DNA from: Candidatus Omnitrophota bacterium
Lineage (GTDB): Bacteria; Omnitrophota; Gorgyraeia; Zapsychrales; Zapsychraceae
Assembly (NCBI GenBank): GCA_028280285.1
Contig: JANQMA010000004.1
Span: forward strand, 15,820 to 79,819
Reading direction: 5' to 3'
Length of the DNA: 64,000 bases
Below are positions 537 through 59,060 of the stretch, piece by piece (positions within the stretch are counted from its first letter, which is position 1; each line of letters opens with the position of its first letter). A model generated the notes under the pieces. It was not told the DNA's origin, searched no databases, and saw only the letters and a program-made list of their open reading frames with translations. Made by a program: the position numbers and the translations under genes.

Positions 537-1799
537 ATGAGTCAAGCGATTGAAAAAAAAGTCATAGGTTATGTTAAAAAAGCACAAAATGCCTCTAAAC
601 AAATGGTGTTGGTGTCTATGTCTGTCAAAAATGCAGTGTTGAAAAAAATGGCCCGTGCCCTTTTGGCCAATAAAGCTTACTTGCTCCGCGAAAATAAAAA
701 AGATTTAAAGGCGGCCGCATCACAGAATTATCCCTCTGCGCTTGTTGACCGTTTGGTCTTAAATGACAAGCGCATTGCCGGTATGAGTGAGTGTTTGCTT
801 GATACAGCGAAGATCAAGGATCCTGTTGGAACGGTTATAAAGAAATTTAAAAACGCTGATGACCTTAATATAGAGAAGGTCCGCACACCAATCGGTGTTG
901 TTGGTATTATTTATGAATCACGGCCAAATGTGACAAGCGATTGCATTGGACTTTGTCTTAAAAGCGGCAATGCGGTTGTTCTTAAAGGCGGTAAAGAGGC
1001 GATCTATTCTAATAAAGCGATTTTTAAAATTTGCCAAGACGTTCTAAAAAAATCCAAAATTCCTGTCGATGCTATTCAATTAATTGATTCGACCGATCGT
1101 GCAGCGACAAGTACGCTTCTCAAGCAGGATAATTATGTCGATGTGATTGTACCACGTGGTGGCGAGGGGTTGATCAATTATGTCGTCGGTCATTCCCGCA
1201 TACCGGTGATCAAACATGCCGCCGGGATTTGTCATACCTATGTGAGTAATAAAGCCGACTTAAAGAAAGCCAAAGATATCTGCATTAATGCCAAAATCCA
1301 AAGGCCAGGGGTGTGTAATGCGATGGAGACACTGCTTGTGCATAAGGCCGTGGCCAAGAAATTTTTACCGTCAGTTTGTGATGTTTTAATCGATGCCGGT
1401 GTTGAACTGCGTGGTGATCAAAAAACACGCGCCATTATCAAAGGCGTTAAGCCAGCCAAAGCATCAGATTGGGATACAGAGTATCTCGACATGATTTTGT
1501 CGATTAAAGTTGTTGAGAATACGAATGAGGCGATTGCGCATATCAATGATCATGGCTCGGCGCATAGTGATGCGATTGTAACGAAAGATAAAAAAGAAGG
1601 CGATTTATTTTTAAGTGCTGTTCATTCCGCATGTGTTTATGTGAATGCCTCCACACGATTCACCGACGGCTATGCGTTTGGATTTGGCGCCGAAGTCGGC
1701 ATTAGCACCGATAAGTTGCATGCGCGTGGGCCAATGGCCTTGGAGGAATTGACAACGTATAAGTATGCGGTGCGCGGGGTCGGTCAAATACGAAAATAG
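537..1799 (+). CDS. proA: gamma-glutamyl phosphate reductase (glutamate-5-semialdehyde dehydrogenase)
   Basis: 420 aa aldehyde-dehydrogenase fold with ProA-like motifs (IYESRPNVT, catalytic Cys region). Sits in a proBA arrangement. Confidence 0.9.
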   Translation: MSQAIEKKVIGYVKKAQNASKQMVLVSMSVKNAVLKKMARALLANKAYLLRENKKDLKAAASQNYPSALVDRLVLNDKRIAGMSECLLDTAKIKDPVGTVIKKFKNADDLNIEKVRTPIGVVGIIYESRPNVTSDCIGLCLKSGNAVVLKGGKEAIYSNKAIFKICQDVLKKSKIPVDAIQLIDSTDRAATSTLLKQDNYVDVIVPRGGEGLINYVVGHSRIPVIKHAAGICHTYVSNKADLKKAKDICINAKIQRPGVCNAMETLLVHKAVAKKFLPSVCDVLIDAGVELRGDQKTRAIIKGVKPAKASDWDTEYLDMILSIKVVENTNEAIAHINDHGSAHSDAIVTKDKKEGDLFLSAVHSACVYVNASTRFTDGYAFGFGAEVGISTDKLHARGPMALEELTTYKYAVRGVGQIRK

Positions 1800-1990
1800 T
1801 GATACAGTGATAGAGTGATAAAGTGATATGAGAGATAAAAGAGGTAAAAGAGATAGGATAGGTAGTTAAAAATTTGTAAGGCTTATTCAATACCTCTTTT
1901 AGCATTTTTACCTCTACTATCTCTTGGCTTTTAATTATCACTTTATCACCAATTGCCGCTTTACTTATGAATATCACTCTATCACTTTAA
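1797..1990. repeat. about 190-bp imperfect palindrome built from tandem octamers (GTGATANA)x4 plus (AGAGRTAR)x4 on the left arm, mirrored on the right arm
   Basis: Left arm reads gtgataca gtgataga gtgataaa gtgatatg. Right arm contains atcactctatcactt and atcactttatcac. Fills the proA-nadD intergenic gap. Confidence 0.7.
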
Positions 1991-1991
1991 T

Positions 1992-2567
1992 ATGAATAAA
2001 AAAATTGGTATACTCGGCGGAACGTTCGATCCGATTCATTTTGGGCATTTATCCATCGCGCAAGCCGCGAGCGTTAAACTCAAACTGGATAAAGTTATTT
2101 TTGTGCCGGCCTATATTCCACCGCATAAAAAAAAGAATAAGATAGTCAGTAGCAAGGCTCGTCTTGATATGGTGCAGTTGGCCATTGAAGGCAACAAATA
2201 TTTCGCCCTATCTAATTTTGAAATTAAAAAATGTGATACGTCATATAGTGTAGAGACGGCGGAGTATTTTAAAAAGAGTTATCCTAAAGACACAAAATTT
2301 TACTTTATTGTCGGAGAAGACACCGCGGCGCAGCTGCATACATGGAAGAAGATTGACGAGCTCAAAGAGATTGTTTCTTTTGTGTCAGTGAATCGTCTAG
2401 GGTACAAAGCGAAACAAACTCAAGTGAAAGTACGCTCGATCGTAATGCCGAATTTAGAGATTTCATCGTCGTATTTGAGGCAGTGCGTTAAGCAGGATAA
2501 ACCGCTTAGGTATTTAATGCCTGAGAAAGTAATCAATTACATCAAGAAAAATAAGTTATATCAGTAG
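1992..2567 (+). CDS. nadD: nicotinate-nucleotide adenylyltransferase
   Basis: GGTFDPIHFGH nucleotidyltransferase motif at the N-terminus; 191 aa. Confidence 0.85.
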   Translation: MNKKIGILGGTFDPIHFGHLSIAQAASVKLKLDKVIFVPAYIPPHKKKNKIVSSKARLDMVQLAIEGNKYFALSNFEIKKCDTSYSVETAEYFKKSYPKDTKFYFIVGEDTAAQLHTWKKIDELKEIVSFVSVNRLGYKAKQTQVKVRSIVMPNLEISSSYLRQCVKQDKPLRYLMPEKVINYIKKNKLYQ

Positions 2568-56885: not shown

Positions 56886-58520
56886 ATGAGCTACGTTGAA
56901 TCGGAAAAAATATTTTTTGGACGGGAAAAGACGCTTGCGACTCTCAAGAGGCGCGTTATTGATTTAAAAGAAGGGTATCGCCAGAATGTTGCTCTTCTTG
57001 GCAGCCGTTATATCGGAAAGAGTGCGCTCCTACATCATTTTATGGACAATTTGGATGACCGGGATATCACGGTTATCTACCTCGACCTTGAAAACAAAGA
57101 CTTCAAGTATTTTGTCGATAAGTTTATCGGCAGTTTGCTGTATAACTTTTCTAAAAATCTCAATTTAGTTTTATTTGAAGATATTAATGTTCTCATTGAA
57201 AATACACGCCAATATATTCCGCATACAGTGGCGGTGATTGAGAAAATCCGCTCGGATTTTCTTAAAAACAAACTAACAGAATGTTATTTAGGGCTGCTTG
57301 CTCTTCCAGAGATTTTTACGAATGAGACAGGTAAATACTGTGTTCTTATTATCGATGAATTTCAGGCCATGGATGAGTTTGAGATGCCGAATTTGTTTCA
57401 TGATTTGGGTAATAAGATTATGACGCAAAAAAGGTGTTTTTATATTCTTTCCAGTTCTTACCGTATTGTGGCCGAAAGCATCATTTCGCAAAGGTTGTCG
57501 CTTTTGTTTGGCAATTTCGAAACAATTGAAATTGATGTGTTCGATAATGAAACAAGTCATGAGTTTATTGCTTATAATTTGGGAACGCGTAAAATCGGTC
57601 TACATTTGGCTAATTTCCTGATCGATTTTTGTGCGGGGCATCCTTTGTATTTGAATCTTCTTTGCCAGGAATTTAAGAATCTTGGGGCTGCCCATAATCA
57701 AACCGAAATTTATGTTCCCTTATTGTCGCAGGCTGTTGAGAACACTATTTTTGACCGTTGGGGCGTTTTGTCCCGTCATTTTGAGTTAATCACCAATGAG
57801 CTAGCGAGTGGCAAAGGGAATAAATTAACGACCATGATCCTTATGGCGCTTGCCGATGAAAATCATAAGATTGCGGACATTATTGACCATATAGATGTCA
57901 AAAGAACCCAAGTGTCCCAAAAATTGTCACGTTTAATGGAAATGGGTTTTGTGGTCAAAAACGGAAATTATTATTTTCTCAAAGATAAGTTATTTAAATA
58001 CTGGATTAAGTTTGTCTATCAAAAACGTTTTAAAGATATTGAGTTGGCGCCGGATAAGCTGCGCAAACAATTTAAAGAAGAGTTTAATCGTTTGGTGGAA
58101 GATTTTTATGTTTGCACGCGTAAGGATTTATCCTCGAGGATCATTGAACTCTTATACTGTTTCGATAATGAGGCGTTTCAGCTCAATGGCCGTAAATACA
58201 AACTGCCGGTGTTCAAAAGGATTGAACCATTTAAACTTGATGTTAATTCCGGACGGGCCTTTGATGTCATTGAAGCGCAAACAAAAAATGCCTCCTGGTA
58301 TATTTTTATGAAAAAGGATGTGTTTTTTGAAAATGATATTAATTTGATTGCGAACACCGTTAAAGAAAATAAAAAGAAACTCGAGCGGTGTCTGATTATT
58401 TCTCTTTCCGATTTGGAAGAAAATGCAAGGCTTAAGGCTTTGCAAGAACGGTTCTGGATCTGGAATCAGGGAGAGCTTAACGCCTTATTAACGTTATTTG
58501 ATAAACCGTATATTGTCTGA
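56886..58520 (+). CDS. predicted AAA-type ATPase of the Arch_ATPase (ATPase_2)/DUF234-like architecture, with a wHTH-like region
   Basis: FFGREKTL...LLGSRYIGKSALLHHF (degenerate Walker A) and VLIIDEFQAM (Walker B-like IDEFQ). The C-terminal half resembles DUF234. Function unknown. Confidence 0.5.
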   Translation: MSYVESEKIFFGREKTLATLKRRVIDLKEGYRQNVALLGSRYIGKSALLHHFMDNLDDRDITVIYLDLENKDFKYFVDKFIGSLLYNFSKNLNLVLFEDINVLIENTRQYIPHTVAVIEKIRSDFLKNKLTECYLGLLALPEIFTNETGKYCVLIIDEFQAMDEFEMPNLFHDLGNKIMTQKRCFYILSSSYRIVAESIISQRLSLLFGNFETIEIDVFDNETSHEFIAYNLGTRKIGLHLANFLIDFCAGHPLYLNLLCQEFKNLGAAHNQTEIYVPLLSQAVENTIFDRWGVLSRHFELITNELASGKGNKLTTMILMALADENHKIADIIDHIDVKRTQVSQKLSRLMEMGFVVKNGNYYFLKDKLFKYWIKFVYQKRFKDIELAPDKLRKQFKEEFNRLVEDFYVCTRKDLSSRIIELLYCFDNEAFQLNGRKYKLPVFKRIEPFKLDVNSGRAFDVIEAQTKNASWYIFMKKDVFFENDINLIANTVKENKKKLERCLIISLSDLEENARLKALQERFWIWNQGELNALLTLFDKPYIV

Positions 58521-58996
58521 TGAAGATCGGAGTTGTTTCAGATACGCACTCACTGGAGATTCCCGCAAAGGTTATTAAGGGTCTTAAAAGCGCTGATTTA
58601 ATTATTCATGCCGGCGACTTTTGTTCTCAGGAAGAATTTAAGCTTTTTAGTAGCCTTAAAGAATTAAAAGCTGTTTATGGCAACTGTGATGAGCCTGCGC
58701 TTCTTAAAAAGTTGTCTGAGAAATGTATTTTTGAGGTGGAAGGCATTACCATCGGTATTTTTCACGGCGAGGGTTCACAACATACCGTTCTCGATTCGGT
58801 CAGGCGTAAGTTTAAAAGTGATAAGATTGATGTGGCTGTATTCGGGCATTCCCACGAAGCTTTGATTTCAACCATTGAAGGGGTATTGTATTTTAATCCG
58901 GGCAGTCCGAATGATATGGTGACCGCGCCGTATTGTTCGTATGGGATCTTGGATGTGAAAGATGAACAGGTGGAGGCACAGATAATAAAAATATAG
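58520..58996 (+). CDS. YfcE/MJ0936-family metallophosphoesterase
   Basis: GDTH, GDF, GN[CH], GHSH metallophosphatase motifs. TGATG coupling with the upstream ATPase. Confidence 0.75.
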   Translation: MKIGVVSDTHSLEIPAKVIKGLKSADLIIHAGDFCSQEEFKLFSSLKELKAVYGNCDEPALLKKLSEKCIFEVEGITIGIFHGEGSQHTVLDSVRRKFKSDKIDVAVFGHSHEALISTIEGVLYFNPGSPNDMVTAPYCSYGILDVKDEQVEAQIIKI

Positions 58997-59060
58997 GGCC
59001 GACACATAGGTCGGCCCCTACGCGACGTAGGGGCGGGGCAATGACCCCGCCCGATAAATT
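58997..59060. repeat. GC-rich triple tandem hairpin (gggccgac..gtcggccc; cctacgcgacgtagg; ggggcgggg..ccccgccc)
   Basis: Three consecutive perfect short palindromes in an otherwise AT-rich context; no T-run. Confidence 0.6.

Follow-up and report, generated by a model that had tools for sequence, protein, structure and literature searches.

Heptamer repeats of the type found in cyanobacteria, Geobacter, and Xanthomonas have been seen before, and to our knowledge they have never been explained. G. metallireducens contains paired tandem hepta- and octanucleotide sites, including classes 1-3 and the Gmet_H4 elements (Aklujkar et al. 2009, PMC2700814). Their units are GTTGCTYN x4, TCTCCGTS[Y] x3, and MTYCTGA x5, with pair counts of 24, 21, and 8; in the authors' interpretation, these are sites on the DNA at which global regulators act (PMC2700814). 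The Xanthomonas unit is GGGAATC, or (GGGANTN)n with positions 5 and 7 variable, and arrays of four units predominate; each genome has 70-75 pairs of convergent arrays on opposite strands, capable of forming stem-loops (PMC4692102). Both sides of the P6b stem in the Nostoc tRNA-Leu (trnL) intron are built of the degenerate heptamers TDNGATT and NNTGAGT (PMC4476775). Marine Beggiatoaceae carry TAACTGA direct repeats, which are intergenic heptamer arrays of 2-6 units, patchy across phyla (PMC4679880). REPINs form several families per genome; the replicative unit is a hairpin-forming inverted doublet, and the singlets are interpreted as decayed remnants (PMC3116915).

Period-7 palindromes in the window

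The DNA analysed here (the window) is a 64-kb stretch of a MAG from an uncultured Candidatus Omnitrophota bacterium. It contains 12 two-armed elements and two one-armed arrays (Table 1). The elements are 57-194 nt long with about four units per arm (range 3-5), and at least seven distinct cores occur within the 64 kb. A preliminary description of this DNA had listed eleven sites, all of which contain the heptamer-type palindrome it described; S3a and the one-armed arrays H1 and H2 were missing from that list. Its outline of several unrelated cores sharing one architecture was confirmed (two mirrored arms of about four units each, with the free positions always at the same phase), as was its remark that one case has units longer than 7 nt; this is S1, built of 8- and 9-mers. 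Its view that these are not CRISPR arrays was also supported. The region 59000-59070 was rejected as a heptamer element; it is a GC-rich multi-hairpin without heptad periodicity.

Table 1. Heptamer-type elements of the window and the gene hosting S3a and S3b (z, RNA fold z-score against shuffles)
Feature	Position	Strand	Units and arms	Location	z	Further findings
S1	1797..1990	.	compound palindrome; outer arms (AGTGATAN)x4 8-mers, inner arms AGAGRTAAA 9-mers; second arm mirrors first	proA / nadD gap	-6.6 (RNA)	TRF periods 8, 9, 16; RNA fold -59.7 kcal/mol
S2	4010..4085	.	GGTKTTR; mirrored arm ACCTAAC	phosphoglucomutase-family gene / acyltransferase gene gap	-6.1 (RNA)	arms agree 22/28 in register
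ORF	4902..8024	+			 	1040-aa protein, conserved in Omnitrophota; hosts S3a and S3b
S3a	5422..5491	.	GCTCRTC; mirrored arm ATCGAGC	inside ORF 4902-8024		encodes residues 175-197
S3b	5609..5681	.	family A; (AGTGRTC)x4 then (GACCACA)x4	inside ORF 4902-8024	-5.2	encodes residues 237-260; complementary: core 20/20, variable 1/9
H1	8153..8185	+	one-armed family A array, GAMCACN only	upstream of rpsA		77% in-register identity (D2 group)
S4	9934..9990	.	family A; arms abut	rpsA intrinsic terminator (about 9884-9933) / tyrS start (10002)	-3.7 (RNA)	complementary: core 20/20, variable 2/8
S5	12896..12960	.	GTCNTTR	nusG / rplK gap	-8.1 (RNA)	
S6	39478..39533	.	family A	infA / rpmJ gap	-1.2 (RNA)	starts at 39478, not 39485; first unit overlaps infA stop codon
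S7	40054..40127	.	family A	rpsM / rpsK gap	-4.0 (RNA)	complementary: core 20/20, variable 2/9
S8	44975..45040	.	AAGCNNT, then T-run (TTTTTT)	pilT / lipB gap	-6.9 (RNA)	
S9	48333..48420	.	GTTGNTN	aroQ / Xaa-Pro aminopeptidase gene gap	-6.7	alignments I1, I3, I7
S10	52850..52925	.	GTTGNTN	amaP / pfk gap		inverted copy of S9
H2	55020..55052	+	one-armed family A array: GAGCACA GACCACA GAACACT GAACACA			D2 group
S11	56806..56885	.	AGCGNNT	ends at start codon of 544-aa ATPase/HTH gene	-5.2	

TRF reported 22 period-7 rows in the window versus 1.5 in 30 dinucleotide shuffles. A separate lag scan found 24 period-7 tracts versus 1.5 in shuffles, and seven inverted-complement pairs versus 0.0. The period-7 excess over shuffles is about 15-fold; at periods 6 and 8-11 the counts do not rise above background. 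The source organism was detected in one run only. Two Logan contigs from run SRR20820735 show zero mismatches to the window across S1, S2, S3a, and S6, and the elements are therefore not a one-off assembly artefact. The genes of the 64 kb include neither a transposase nor a RAYT, in agreement with the earlier account, nor any other candidate for mobilising the elements. No target-site duplication was seen when the element flanks were read by eye, and no Rfam family matches the elements.

Every site folds as a long hairpin in which 1-nt internal loops recur at regular intervals. The z-scores against shuffles range from -1.2 (S6) to -8.1 (S5) for RNA, and from -2.7 to -7.1 at six sites for DNA; neither strand is consistently better in RNA folding. 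Every element of the window is flanked by, or contained in, genes of housekeeping operons that run in the same direction, and therefore each element is probably transcribed. The 3' arm ends 0-25 nt ahead of the next start codon, and the Shine-Dalgarno sequence is usually left free. H1 ends 9 nt ahead of the -35 of a site at 8194-8221 that resembles a strong promoter and precedes rpsA. H2 spans the stop codon at the end of the rfaE-domain gene, and the next start codon follows 25 nt downstream. S8 is the sole element resembling an intrinsic terminator.

The elements had been assigned to non-coding gaps, but that at 5612-5681 (S3b) lies in frame inside ORF 4902-8024, together with S3a. The 1040-aa protein matches no Pfam or NCBIfam family; over residues 10-411, tblastn aligns it in one frame with two homologues (L044 and L049) at 46-47% identity. 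Both S3a and S3b keep the reading frame. At S3a, the two homologues align on either side and are 11 aa shorter there, and the positions of both elements are protein loops variable among homologues. Their in-frame occurrence within a conserved gene fits a process blind to coding status, with selection filtering afterwards.

Unit grammar, families, and orthologous junctions

The preliminary description took each unit as a hexamer core plus one variable base, with a mismatch at every 7th position. The units actually contain five conserved and two variable positions, such as GTGNTCN, GGTKTTR, GTCNTTR, GTTGNTN, AAGCNNT, and AGCGNNT. The core positions are complementary between arms in 205/217 cases (94%); the variable positions pair at about chance, in 31/89 (35%) versus about 27% expected, a rough estimate from base composition. 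The variable positions are unconstrained, not always mismatched. The two free phases are about 50% variable, and the five core phases are essentially invariant. Neutral decay could not yield this pattern, which would fit selection on the needs of a replicating or folding unit. The G.U and A.C counts gave no strand-specific sign of RNA-level selection.

The elements are present as multi-copy families. In the window, the family A core occurs at six unlinked places and GTTGNTN at two. S9 and S10 match at 26/28 positions in register, including a rare GTTGATG unit, and have the loop hexamer CTTGCC in common; over 28 nt, the first arm of S10 and the second arm of S9 are 93% complementary (I7), and the unit order is kept in the inverted alignment. 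S4 and S6 share 81% identity over 62 nt (D3). Family A has six C+A-rich arms, which are 71-86% identical in register and follow a common unit order (permutation p about 0.01); no common order was found among the family A G+T-rich arms (p = 0.9). The common unit order and loop sequence within families therefore indicate sequence families that are being copied. In a set of 83 inverted pairs, 17 cores are compositionally asymmetric, and 16 of these have the G+T-rich arm on the 5' side.

Orthologous junctions were compared in 20-45 Omnitrophota relatives. The proA / nadD spacer holding S1 is 192 nt here versus about -7 (overlap) in most relatives; the pgm / plsC spacer (S2), 102 nt versus about 0; the nusG / rplK spacer (S5), 96 nt versus 1-20 in most; the infA / rpmJ spacer (S6), 67 nt versus 0-2 in the three closest; and the rpsM / rpsK spacer (S7), 101 nt versus 26-58. 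Period-7 tracts number 0.57 per 10 kb in the comparator loci versus 3.75 in the window. In 1.33 Mb of comparator DNA, mostly from Omnitrophota relatives, none of the window's cores forms an array of three units. The pgm / plsC junction that holds S2 is occupied in one relative (L026) by a similar element with an ACCTA core. Downstream of rpsA, an ordinary hairpin is common among the relatives; in two of them (L029 and L042) it is made of 7-8-mers with other cores. Spacers of 67-192 nt, at junctions tight or overlapping in relatives with 70-80% identical proteins, show that the elements are lineage-specific additions.

Origin and possible role of the elements

The elements may well be several families of short dispersed palindromic repeats of the STRR/REPIN type, spread as whole elements, a reading in which we place about even confidence. 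It is suggested by the period-7-specific excess with paired arms, the tight or overlapping orthologous junctions in relatives, and the same cores at unlinked sites with none in the 1.33 Mb of comparators. The copies are homologous as whole elements (S9/S10, S4/S6, and the family A C+A-rich arms), folding is well above shuffles for both RNA and DNA, and the two- and one-armed forms parallel the REPIN doublets and singlets (PMC3116915). A short unit might have been amplified by tandem 7-nt duplication (slippage), and the array then mirrored into a second arm. The finished palindrome would have spread whole, in either orientation, into intergenic gaps, through a mobilising activity that the window does not encode. 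Only harmless insertions would have survived, in spacers between cistrons, in upstream regions, and in two variable loops of a protein. In mRNA, each element may fold to a helix of about 25 bp, interrupted every few base pairs. The likeliest effect might be operon punctuation similar to that of REP/BIME, as a 3'-end barrier or processing site uncoupling neighbouring cistrons. Against the dispersed-repeat reading stand the lack of a mobilising gene in the window and of a target-site duplication, and the G+T-rich arms without a common order. Moreover, with seven or more cores in 64 kb, either many specific enzymes or one structure-reading enzyme would be required. The earlier proposal that periodic structure rather than sequence is recognised is unneeded for spread within the genome, where families are copied; its part concerning the 7-nt unit and the cross-phylum grammar was not refuted.

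Local simple-sequence repeats, arising by polymerase slippage of 7-nt units on pre-existing small hairpins without movement between sites, are an unlikely alternative. The tandem structure itself implies unit duplication, the unit number varies from 3 to 5, and the 7-8-mer hairpins after rpsA in two relatives might be similar products. Work cited in PMC4679880 and PMC4692102 reports heptanucleotides as the most over-represented long prokaryotic SSR class, with slippage as the proposed cause. However, slippage does not account for the same core at six unlinked junctions and in no comparator locus, or for the unit order and loop common to S9 and S10. Most orthologous junctions are 0-20 nt or overlapping, leaving no founder hairpin, and perfect or uniformly decayed units would be predicted instead of five invariant and two free phases. 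Selection of dedicated cis-regulatory RNA hairpins at each junction, as RNase III/RNase E sites, 3' stabilisers, or translational gates setting relative cistron expression, is rather improbable. Sense transcription of all elements within operons is likely, the 3' arms end 0-25 nt before start codons with the Shine-Dalgarno usually free, and 94% core pairing is kept with strong folds. The L026 element occupies the S2 junction, and start-codon-proximal heptamer arrays were proposed as translational regulators in Beggiatoaceae and Nostoc. Nevertheless, relatives run the same essential operons without such hairpins, the variable positions show no covariation (31/89 paired), the wobble versus mismatch counts show no strand preference, two copies lie within coding sequence, and no Rfam family matches.

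Head-to-head sets of about four 7-bp sites might also serve as double-stranded DNA binding arrays for nucleoid-associated or regulatory proteins, as proposed in G. metallireducens, where the authors suggested IHF/HU-type binding (PMC2700814). A 5-nt core per 7-nt step, with free positions under no need to pair, is expected from sequence-specific protein contacts, the inverted arrays have fixed polarity, and H1 adjoins the -35 of the promoter-like site ahead of rpsA. This is likewise rather improbable: with seven or more unrelated cores in 64 kb, many proteins would be required, the elements are mostly within operons and away from promoters, and there is no candidate protein. Ordinary intrinsic terminators are very improbable: the elements are hairpins after stop codons, but a T-run (TTTTTT) follows S8 only, rpsA has its own canonical terminator upstream of S4, and the stems are AT-rich and interrupted. 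Several elements also lie within the infA / rpmJ and rpsM / rpsK ribosomal-protein operons, which are normally co-transcribed.

Comparison with known systems

The cyanobacterial STRR2 repeat is TTGGTCA, one base off the family A unit GTGGTCA. However, the STRR repeats have a cyanobacterial host, other cores, and arrays that can be far longer, for example of 26 units. The Nostoc heptamer arrays likewise lie near start codons, and the trnL P6b stem likewise has five fixed and two free positions, with different motifs giving the same structure (PMC4476775). The Xanthomonas arrays are also intergenic and partly in inverted pairs; they differ in a single G-rich core discussed as quadruplex-forming, whereas the window's cores are not G4-prone. 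The Beggiatoaceae TAACTGA repeats are mostly forward and end just before start codons; in this they resemble the one-armed arrays and C+A-rich 3' arms of the window. They differ in having a single core and in being nearly always one-armed, only one of 170 cases being inverted (PMC4679880).

REP/BIME/REPIN elements are likewise short, extragenic, palindromic, and co-transcribed in operons (PMC3116915). The REP itself is a small palindrome with a conserved head, whereas the arm here is a non-palindromic tandem heptamer array; the REP systems are paired with RAYT transposases, and the window shows no RAYT. The contrast with REP/BIME drawn earlier was overstated, since REPINs are also multi-family, with inverted doublets and decayed singlets (PMC3116915). 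The G. metallireducens sites similarly have 3-5 tandem 7-9-nt units with degenerate positions, opposite-strand pairs, and a variable spacer. They form several classes per genome, are intergenic, also intra-operon (proB / proA) and in some cases intragenic, and are absent from the sister species (PMC2700814). The phylum and the cores are different, yet GTTGCTYN resembles the window's GTTGNTN. The architecture itself has these precedents (PMC2700814, with three classes of tandem-repeat sites; PMC4692102; PMC4476775). By this comparison, the elements do not represent a new kind, having precedents in G. metallireducens, Xanthomonas, and Nostoc.

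Occurrence and anatomy of the heptamer palindromes

Reading of the window sequence confirmed, with corrections, the palindromes with tandem 7-mer arms that had been listed in the preliminary description. All of the listed sites hold palindromes; the two-armed S3a and the one-armed arrays H1 and H2 had been omitted. The S1 units are 8- and 9-mers, and the block at 59000-59070 is GC-rich and multi-hairpin, without heptad periodicity. The elements comprise 12 doublets (two-armed) and 2 singlets (one-armed).

Coordinates, form and repeat unit of the heptamer-built elements in the window
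Element	Coordinates	Form	Unit
S1	1797-1990	two-armed	
S2	4010-4085	two-armed	GGTKTTR
S3a	5422-5491	two-armed	
S3b	5609-5681	two-armed	GTGNTCN (family A)
H1	8153-8185	one-armed	GTGNTCN (family A)
S4	9934-9990	two-armed	GTGNTCN (family A)
S5	12896-12960	two-armed	GTCNTTR
S6	39478-39533	two-armed	GTGNTCN (family A)
S7	40054-40127	two-armed	GTGNTCN (family A)
S8	44975-45040	two-armed	AAGCNNT
S9	48333-48420	two-armed	GTTGNTN
S10	52850-52925	two-armed	GTTGNTN
H2	55020-55052	one-armed	GTGNTCN (family A)
S11	56806-56885	two-armed	AGCGNNT

Tandem Repeats Finder reported 22 period-7 rows in the window, whereas 30 shuffles that preserved dinucleotides averaged 1.5; the excess for periods 8-10 was far smaller (5-8 rows against 1.4-2.5). 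An independent lag-autocorrelation scan detected 24 period-7 tracts against 1.5 in shuffles, and seven tract pairs with reverse-complement consensus units against 0.0, with no more than background for periods 6 and 8-11. In the window, the period-7 excess is large, and specific to that period. All sites fold as hairpins with regularly spaced single-base internal loops. The RNA fold z-scores range from -1.2 (S6) to -8.1, and the DNA fold z-scores of six sites from -2.7 to -7.1.

An assembly artefact was ruled out by identical sequence in independent Logan contigs: two contigs of run SRR20820735 have zero mismatches to the window across S1, S2, S3a, and S6. Heptamer elements do break short-read assemblies in practice. 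The Logan contig L001 stops at 5494 of the window, a little beyond the second arm of S3a; the end of another, L102, is not at any element.

The unit phases of each element were scored by aligning the first arm with the reverse complement of the second. In every element, five phases of the 7-nt unit are essentially invariant, and two are about 40~60% variable. Five invariant and two saturated phases are unobtainable by uniform neutral decay; therefore, the cores are constrained by something. The preliminary description had proposed a hexamer plus one variable base, with a mismatch at every 7th position. The arm alignment corrects both statements: each unit has two free positions, and these pair about at chance (31/89, or 35%, against about 27% estimated from composition alone). 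The core positions are complementary in 205/217 cases. There is no clear sign of selection for pairing or for mismatch at the free positions. Each arm has 3-5 units, typically four, the unit being 7 nt long (8-9 nt in S1). The 5' arm is G+T-rich (0.61-0.94) in 9/12 two-armed elements; the other three are S8, weakly reversed, and two neutral elements. Several unrelated cores do share one layout, as first described: at least seven distinct cores occur in the 64 kb, all with mirrored arms and the 5+2 unit, and family A occurs six times.

The window also contains repeats of other kinds. An inverted repeat at 4683-4806 lies between an acyltransferase gene and the following 1040-aa gene; its 58-nt arms are 8 nt apart and 71% complementary, with a fold of about -50 kcal/mol. 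It has no heptad periodicity, and appears to be a palindromic or MITE-like element of another type. A 97-nt direct repeat (11420-11516 and 11811-11907, 76% identical) lies directly 3' of the tRNA-Thr and tRNA-Trp genes, and each copy has its own hairpin. No credible Rfam match was found for it, the only two hits being sub-threshold on the - strand (E 0.087 and 0.28). Two GC-rich multi-hairpin blocks (47303-47376 and 58997-59069) in this 42% GC genome may represent a separate REP-like family; the latter falls inside the range first assigned to the palindromes, and is not heptad-built. A palindrome at 25793-25856 (34-nt arms, 82% complementary) occupies the gap after ORF 23668-25764, which is probably fusA, judging from its str operon position.

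Placement in operons and comparison with relatives

The window belongs to a Candidatus Omnitrophota genome, and rpoBC, the ribosomal operons str, S10, spc, and alpha, and its further housekeeping genes all lie on the + strand. Its RpoA has its best match among genome contigs (81%), and its RpsA among metagenome contigs (77%), in Candidatus Omnitrophota MAGs. Exact-protein look-ups of NadD and IF-1 returned matches only in SRR20820735. The occupied spacers are proA/nadD, pgm/plsC, rpsA/tyrS, nusG/rplK, infA/rpmJ, rpsM/rpsK, pilT/lipB, aroQ/pepP, amaP/pfk, and one upstream of an ATPase/HTH gene. Heptamer elements or arrays occur in 11 of about 24 gaps of at least 40 nt (two-armed in 10, one-armed in 1). 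Spacers of 91-113 nt hold 7/9 of the two-armed intergenic elements besides S1 (S2, S5, S7-S11), the exceptions being S4 and S6. The element and some 10-15 nt to either side of it make up the spacer, and the Shine-Dalgarno sequence mostly remains free. S4 follows the canonical intrinsic terminator of rpsA and precedes the start codon of tyrS. H1 adjoins the -35 of an 11/12 promoter-like site (8194-8221) upstream of rpsA; upstream of both H1 and this strong promoter-like site there is also a long hairpin at 8035-8135 (ATCAGAAAGTAGTATTC...GAATACTACTTTCTGAT).

Two elements are intragenic. The S3b region had been described as a non-coding gap; S3a and S3b in fact lie in frame within a 1040-aa gene (4902-8024). 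Homologues in other Omnitrophota loci have 46-47% identity, in a single frame, on both sides of both elements, and the positions of S3a and S3b correspond to loops that vary in length and sequence among them. In-frame insertion into proteins is possible for heptamer elements. The 1040-aa protein belongs to no Pfam or NCBIfam family, yet it is conserved in several Omnitrophota loci (L044, L049, and L057); its N-terminus, judged by eye, resembles a signal or membrane segment.

The same gene pairs were compared in 20-45 related loci, where they abut closely or overlap. The proA/nadD spacer is mostly -7 nt in relatives and 192 nt in the window; the pgm/plsC spacer, about 0 and 102 nt; nusG/rplK, 1-20 and 96 nt; infA/rpmJ, 0-2 and 67 nt; and rpsM/rpsK, 26-58 and 101 nt. 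Because the ancestral junctions are reconstructable from the operons of relatives, this comparison demonstrates directly that the elements were added and are not inherited regulatory signals. Period-7 tracts occur at 0.57 per 10 kb in 1.33 Mb of comparator DNA and at 3.75 in the window. None of the window cores was found as a 3-unit array in the comparator DNA. With its elements inserted in ribosomal-protein and housekeeping operons of universal conservation, the window is an unusually clean setting.

A few comparator loci have heptad hairpins of their own, with other cores (L026, L029, L042, L033, L038, L047, L013, and L080). Those of L029 and L042 follow rpsA, and L080 is from another phylum. 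In the Omnitrophota locus L026 (75% RpsA identity), a heptamer palindrome at 1696-1771 occupies the same pgm/plsC junction as S2, with an ACCTA core like that of S2; the two are about 65% identical (an estimate) over ~70 nt in pairwise comparison, loop included. This likeness could be due to shared ancestry or to repeated colonisation of one junction. Two elements of the same architecture, with four units per arm, were also seen in the ribosomal-protein region of a Guaymas Basin deltaproteobacterial MAG (L013:3499-3589 and 15815-15899; units GGTNTCA/CCTGACA and GTTTTAA/TAAAACA).

Copying, possible function and polarity

Some elements resemble each other beyond their units. S9 and S10 are 93% complementary over 28 nt where the second arm of the former is compared with the first arm of the latter; in inverted alignment, their units come in one order, with the rare GTTGATG unit in matching position, and both have the loop hexamer CTTGCC. 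S4 and S6 share 81% identity over 62 nt. In register, the six C+A-rich arms of family A show 71-86% identity, and their similarity exceeds that of controls with shuffled units (p about 0.01); for the in-register unit order of the G+T-rich arms, the same comparison was not significant (p = 0.9). In the favoured reading, the arms were necessarily built by tandem duplication (unit amplification), and copies then spread as whole palindromes. The layout matches that of REPINs, with hairpin-forming inverted doublets, several families per genome, and singlets as remnants. The preliminary interpretation, that a structural or periodic feature rather than one sequence is recognised, is partly supported: the layout is shared and the window has no mobilising gene, but sequence families have been copied, as in S9 and S10.

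Purely local slippage might also generate tandem heptamers. However, one core recurs at six unlinked junctions, S9 and S10 are homologous, and founder hairpins are absent in relatives. Dedicated regulatory RNA hairpins would be another explanation. The folding of all sites is compatible with such a role; however, the free positions lack covariation, two copies are intragenic, and relatives do without the elements. There is also no strand-specific wobble signal that would point to strand-specific RNA selection: G.U-compatible pairs at opposed variable positions number 10 on the + strand and 11 on the - strand. Family A folds better as the - strand and S2, S8, and S10 as the +, with no consistent signal. 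A role as intrinsic terminators, which would call for a GC-rich uninterrupted stem with a U-run directly after it, was rejected. Only S8 has a T-run, and is a possible exception; a terminator scan of 1-14000 listed none of the elements, and S4 is preceded by a separate canonical terminator. Arrays of DNA-binding sites are a further rival explanation. The idea that a 7-nt period, coprime with 3, supplies stop codons in three frames was rejected, as stop trinucleotides are not commoner in the 5' than in the 3' arm; only S1, S8, and S11 have stops in all three frames.

On the analogy of REP/BIME elements, the likeliest effect would be mRNA punctuation (3' protection, processing, and uncoupling of neighbours). 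The elements would be transcribed, because all lie within co-directional operons, and interrupted helices of ~25 bp would form just upstream of the next cistron.

Arrays of (GTGNTCN)x4 were found in at least 120 IMG/VR stretches, and two composition-matched control patterns in 69 and 56. Heptamer arrays in general are therefore common in IMG/VR, and the excess of family A is at most modest. The matches include two-armed AGTGGTC...TGAACAC elements that are family A-like (L104, L111, and L114). Four IMG/VR contigs (L199, L200, L207, and L222) have very dense (CAGTRAT)n ... (ACTGATT)n hairpins in which the loop TAAAGGCAAAA recurs; some of these hairpins are nested or compound, each arm combining two different heptamer arrays. 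The ACTGATT and ACTGATA units of IMG/VR contigs resemble, or are rotations of, the TAACTGA repeat of Beggiatoaceae.

Polarity was compared in the window and all fetched loci together (83 non-redundant inverted pairs, 36 cores). In this pool, no core seen at least twice has more than one polarity, in 16/17 compositionally asymmetric cores the 5' arm is the G+T-rich one, and every CAGT-containing core has its CAGT arm first. The polarity is the same on either strand, and therefore does not derive from strand-biased mutation or from the direction of transcription or replication. Constant polarity is trivial within one family if its members are copies; it is non-trivial across cores. The polarity might serve to avoid leaving a C-rich Rho loading site exposed until the partner arm is transcribed, to keep GTG/TTG and Shine-Dalgarno-like words away from the downstream start codon, or to allow head-to-head protein recognition.

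It is conceivable, and in our judgement rather improbable, that all these elements form one phylum-spanning class with a common grammar, which a conserved machine with a 7-nt measure would write or select. Under this grammar, each 7-nt step would have five fixed and two free nucleotides, each arm a small number of units, and the polarity would be strict and strand-symmetric (G+T-rich, CAGT-type arm 5'; C+A-rich, ACTG-type arm 3'). Candidate machines might include a step of a replicative or repair polymerase, a single-strand binder of the cold-shock/S1 type, Rho avoidance, or an unrecognised mobilising enzyme that reads structure. If this were true, the window, the Guaymas deltaproteobacterial MAG, many IMG/VR contigs, Geobacter, Xanthomonas, cyanobacteria, and Beggiatoaceae would reflect one process. 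The significance of the elements would rise if shared grammar and polarity reflect single conserved machinery. Any mechanism is constrained by the 5+2 unit grammar, the chance-level pairing at free positions, and the cross-lineage polarity rule.

Relation to known repeat classes

CRISPR arrays consist of 24-48-nt direct repeats with unique spacers of similar length. The units here are 7 nt, contiguous, and mirrored, and the earlier exclusion of CRISPR stands. At gathering score, Rfam identified only two tRNAs in the whole window and matched no element. MITEs are defined by terminal inverted repeats, a target-site duplication, and a related autonomous IS. The elements have inverted arms; no target-site duplication was seen on reading the element flanks, and no IS lies within the window. 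Gene annotation bore out the first impression that the window encodes no transposase or RAYT; a RAYT (IS200-like tyrosine transposase) flanked by repeats is a hallmark of REP/REPIN systems. The elements had been called unlike REP/BIME. This holds for the arms, which are heptad arrays and not self-palindromic, whereas a single REP repeat already forms a short imperfect palindrome and has a conserved head sequence. It does not hold for the organisation, because inverted hairpin doublets, singlets, and several families per genome are also features of REPINs (PMC3116915).

The elements share the features of the tandem-heptanucleotide paired-site/STRR-type class. They have 3-5 tandem 7-9-nt units with degenerate positions; the 12 two-armed elements are close inverted arrays capable of forming stem-loops; and within the window they are mainly intergenic and multi-copy, with several cores, and absent from relatives. 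The STRR1-3 units are CCCCAGT, TTGGTCA, and CAACAGT, and their host is a heterocystous cyanobacterium. The window elements are not cyanobacterial STRR sensu stricto, since the units differ and the best RpoA and RpsA matches are to Omnitrophota. Heptanucleotide repeat hairpins were noticed 35 years ago in cyanobacteria; those of Xanthomonas, Geobacter, and giant sulfur bacteria followed. To our knowledge, the origin and role of such hairpins were never established. We know of no cultured members of the candidate phylum of the window.

Geobacter metallireducens has three classes of opposite-strand paired sites with 3-5 tandem 7-9-mers (GTTGCTYN, TCTCCGTS[Y], and MTYCTGA), and another family of 49 elements, each with four GGACCGG repeats; its sites occur between and within genes, for example proB/proA, and are absent from G. 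sulfurreducens (PMC2700814). Xanthomonas (GGGANTN)n arrays have mostly four units, with 70-75 convergent inverted pairs per genome (PMC4692102). In Nostoc, both sides of the P6b stem of the tRNA-Leu intron consist of TDNGATT or NNTGAGT units (PMC4476775); heptamer arrays also lie near start codons. The TAACTGA arrays of marine Beggiatoaceae end just upstream of start codons (PMC4679880). The mechanism was established in none of these studies, and our literature search found no paper tying such heptamer repeats to Omnitrophota. The architecture is not new; what the window adds is a new and dense example, from a candidate phylum, of a type of repeat that is known but still lacks an explanation.
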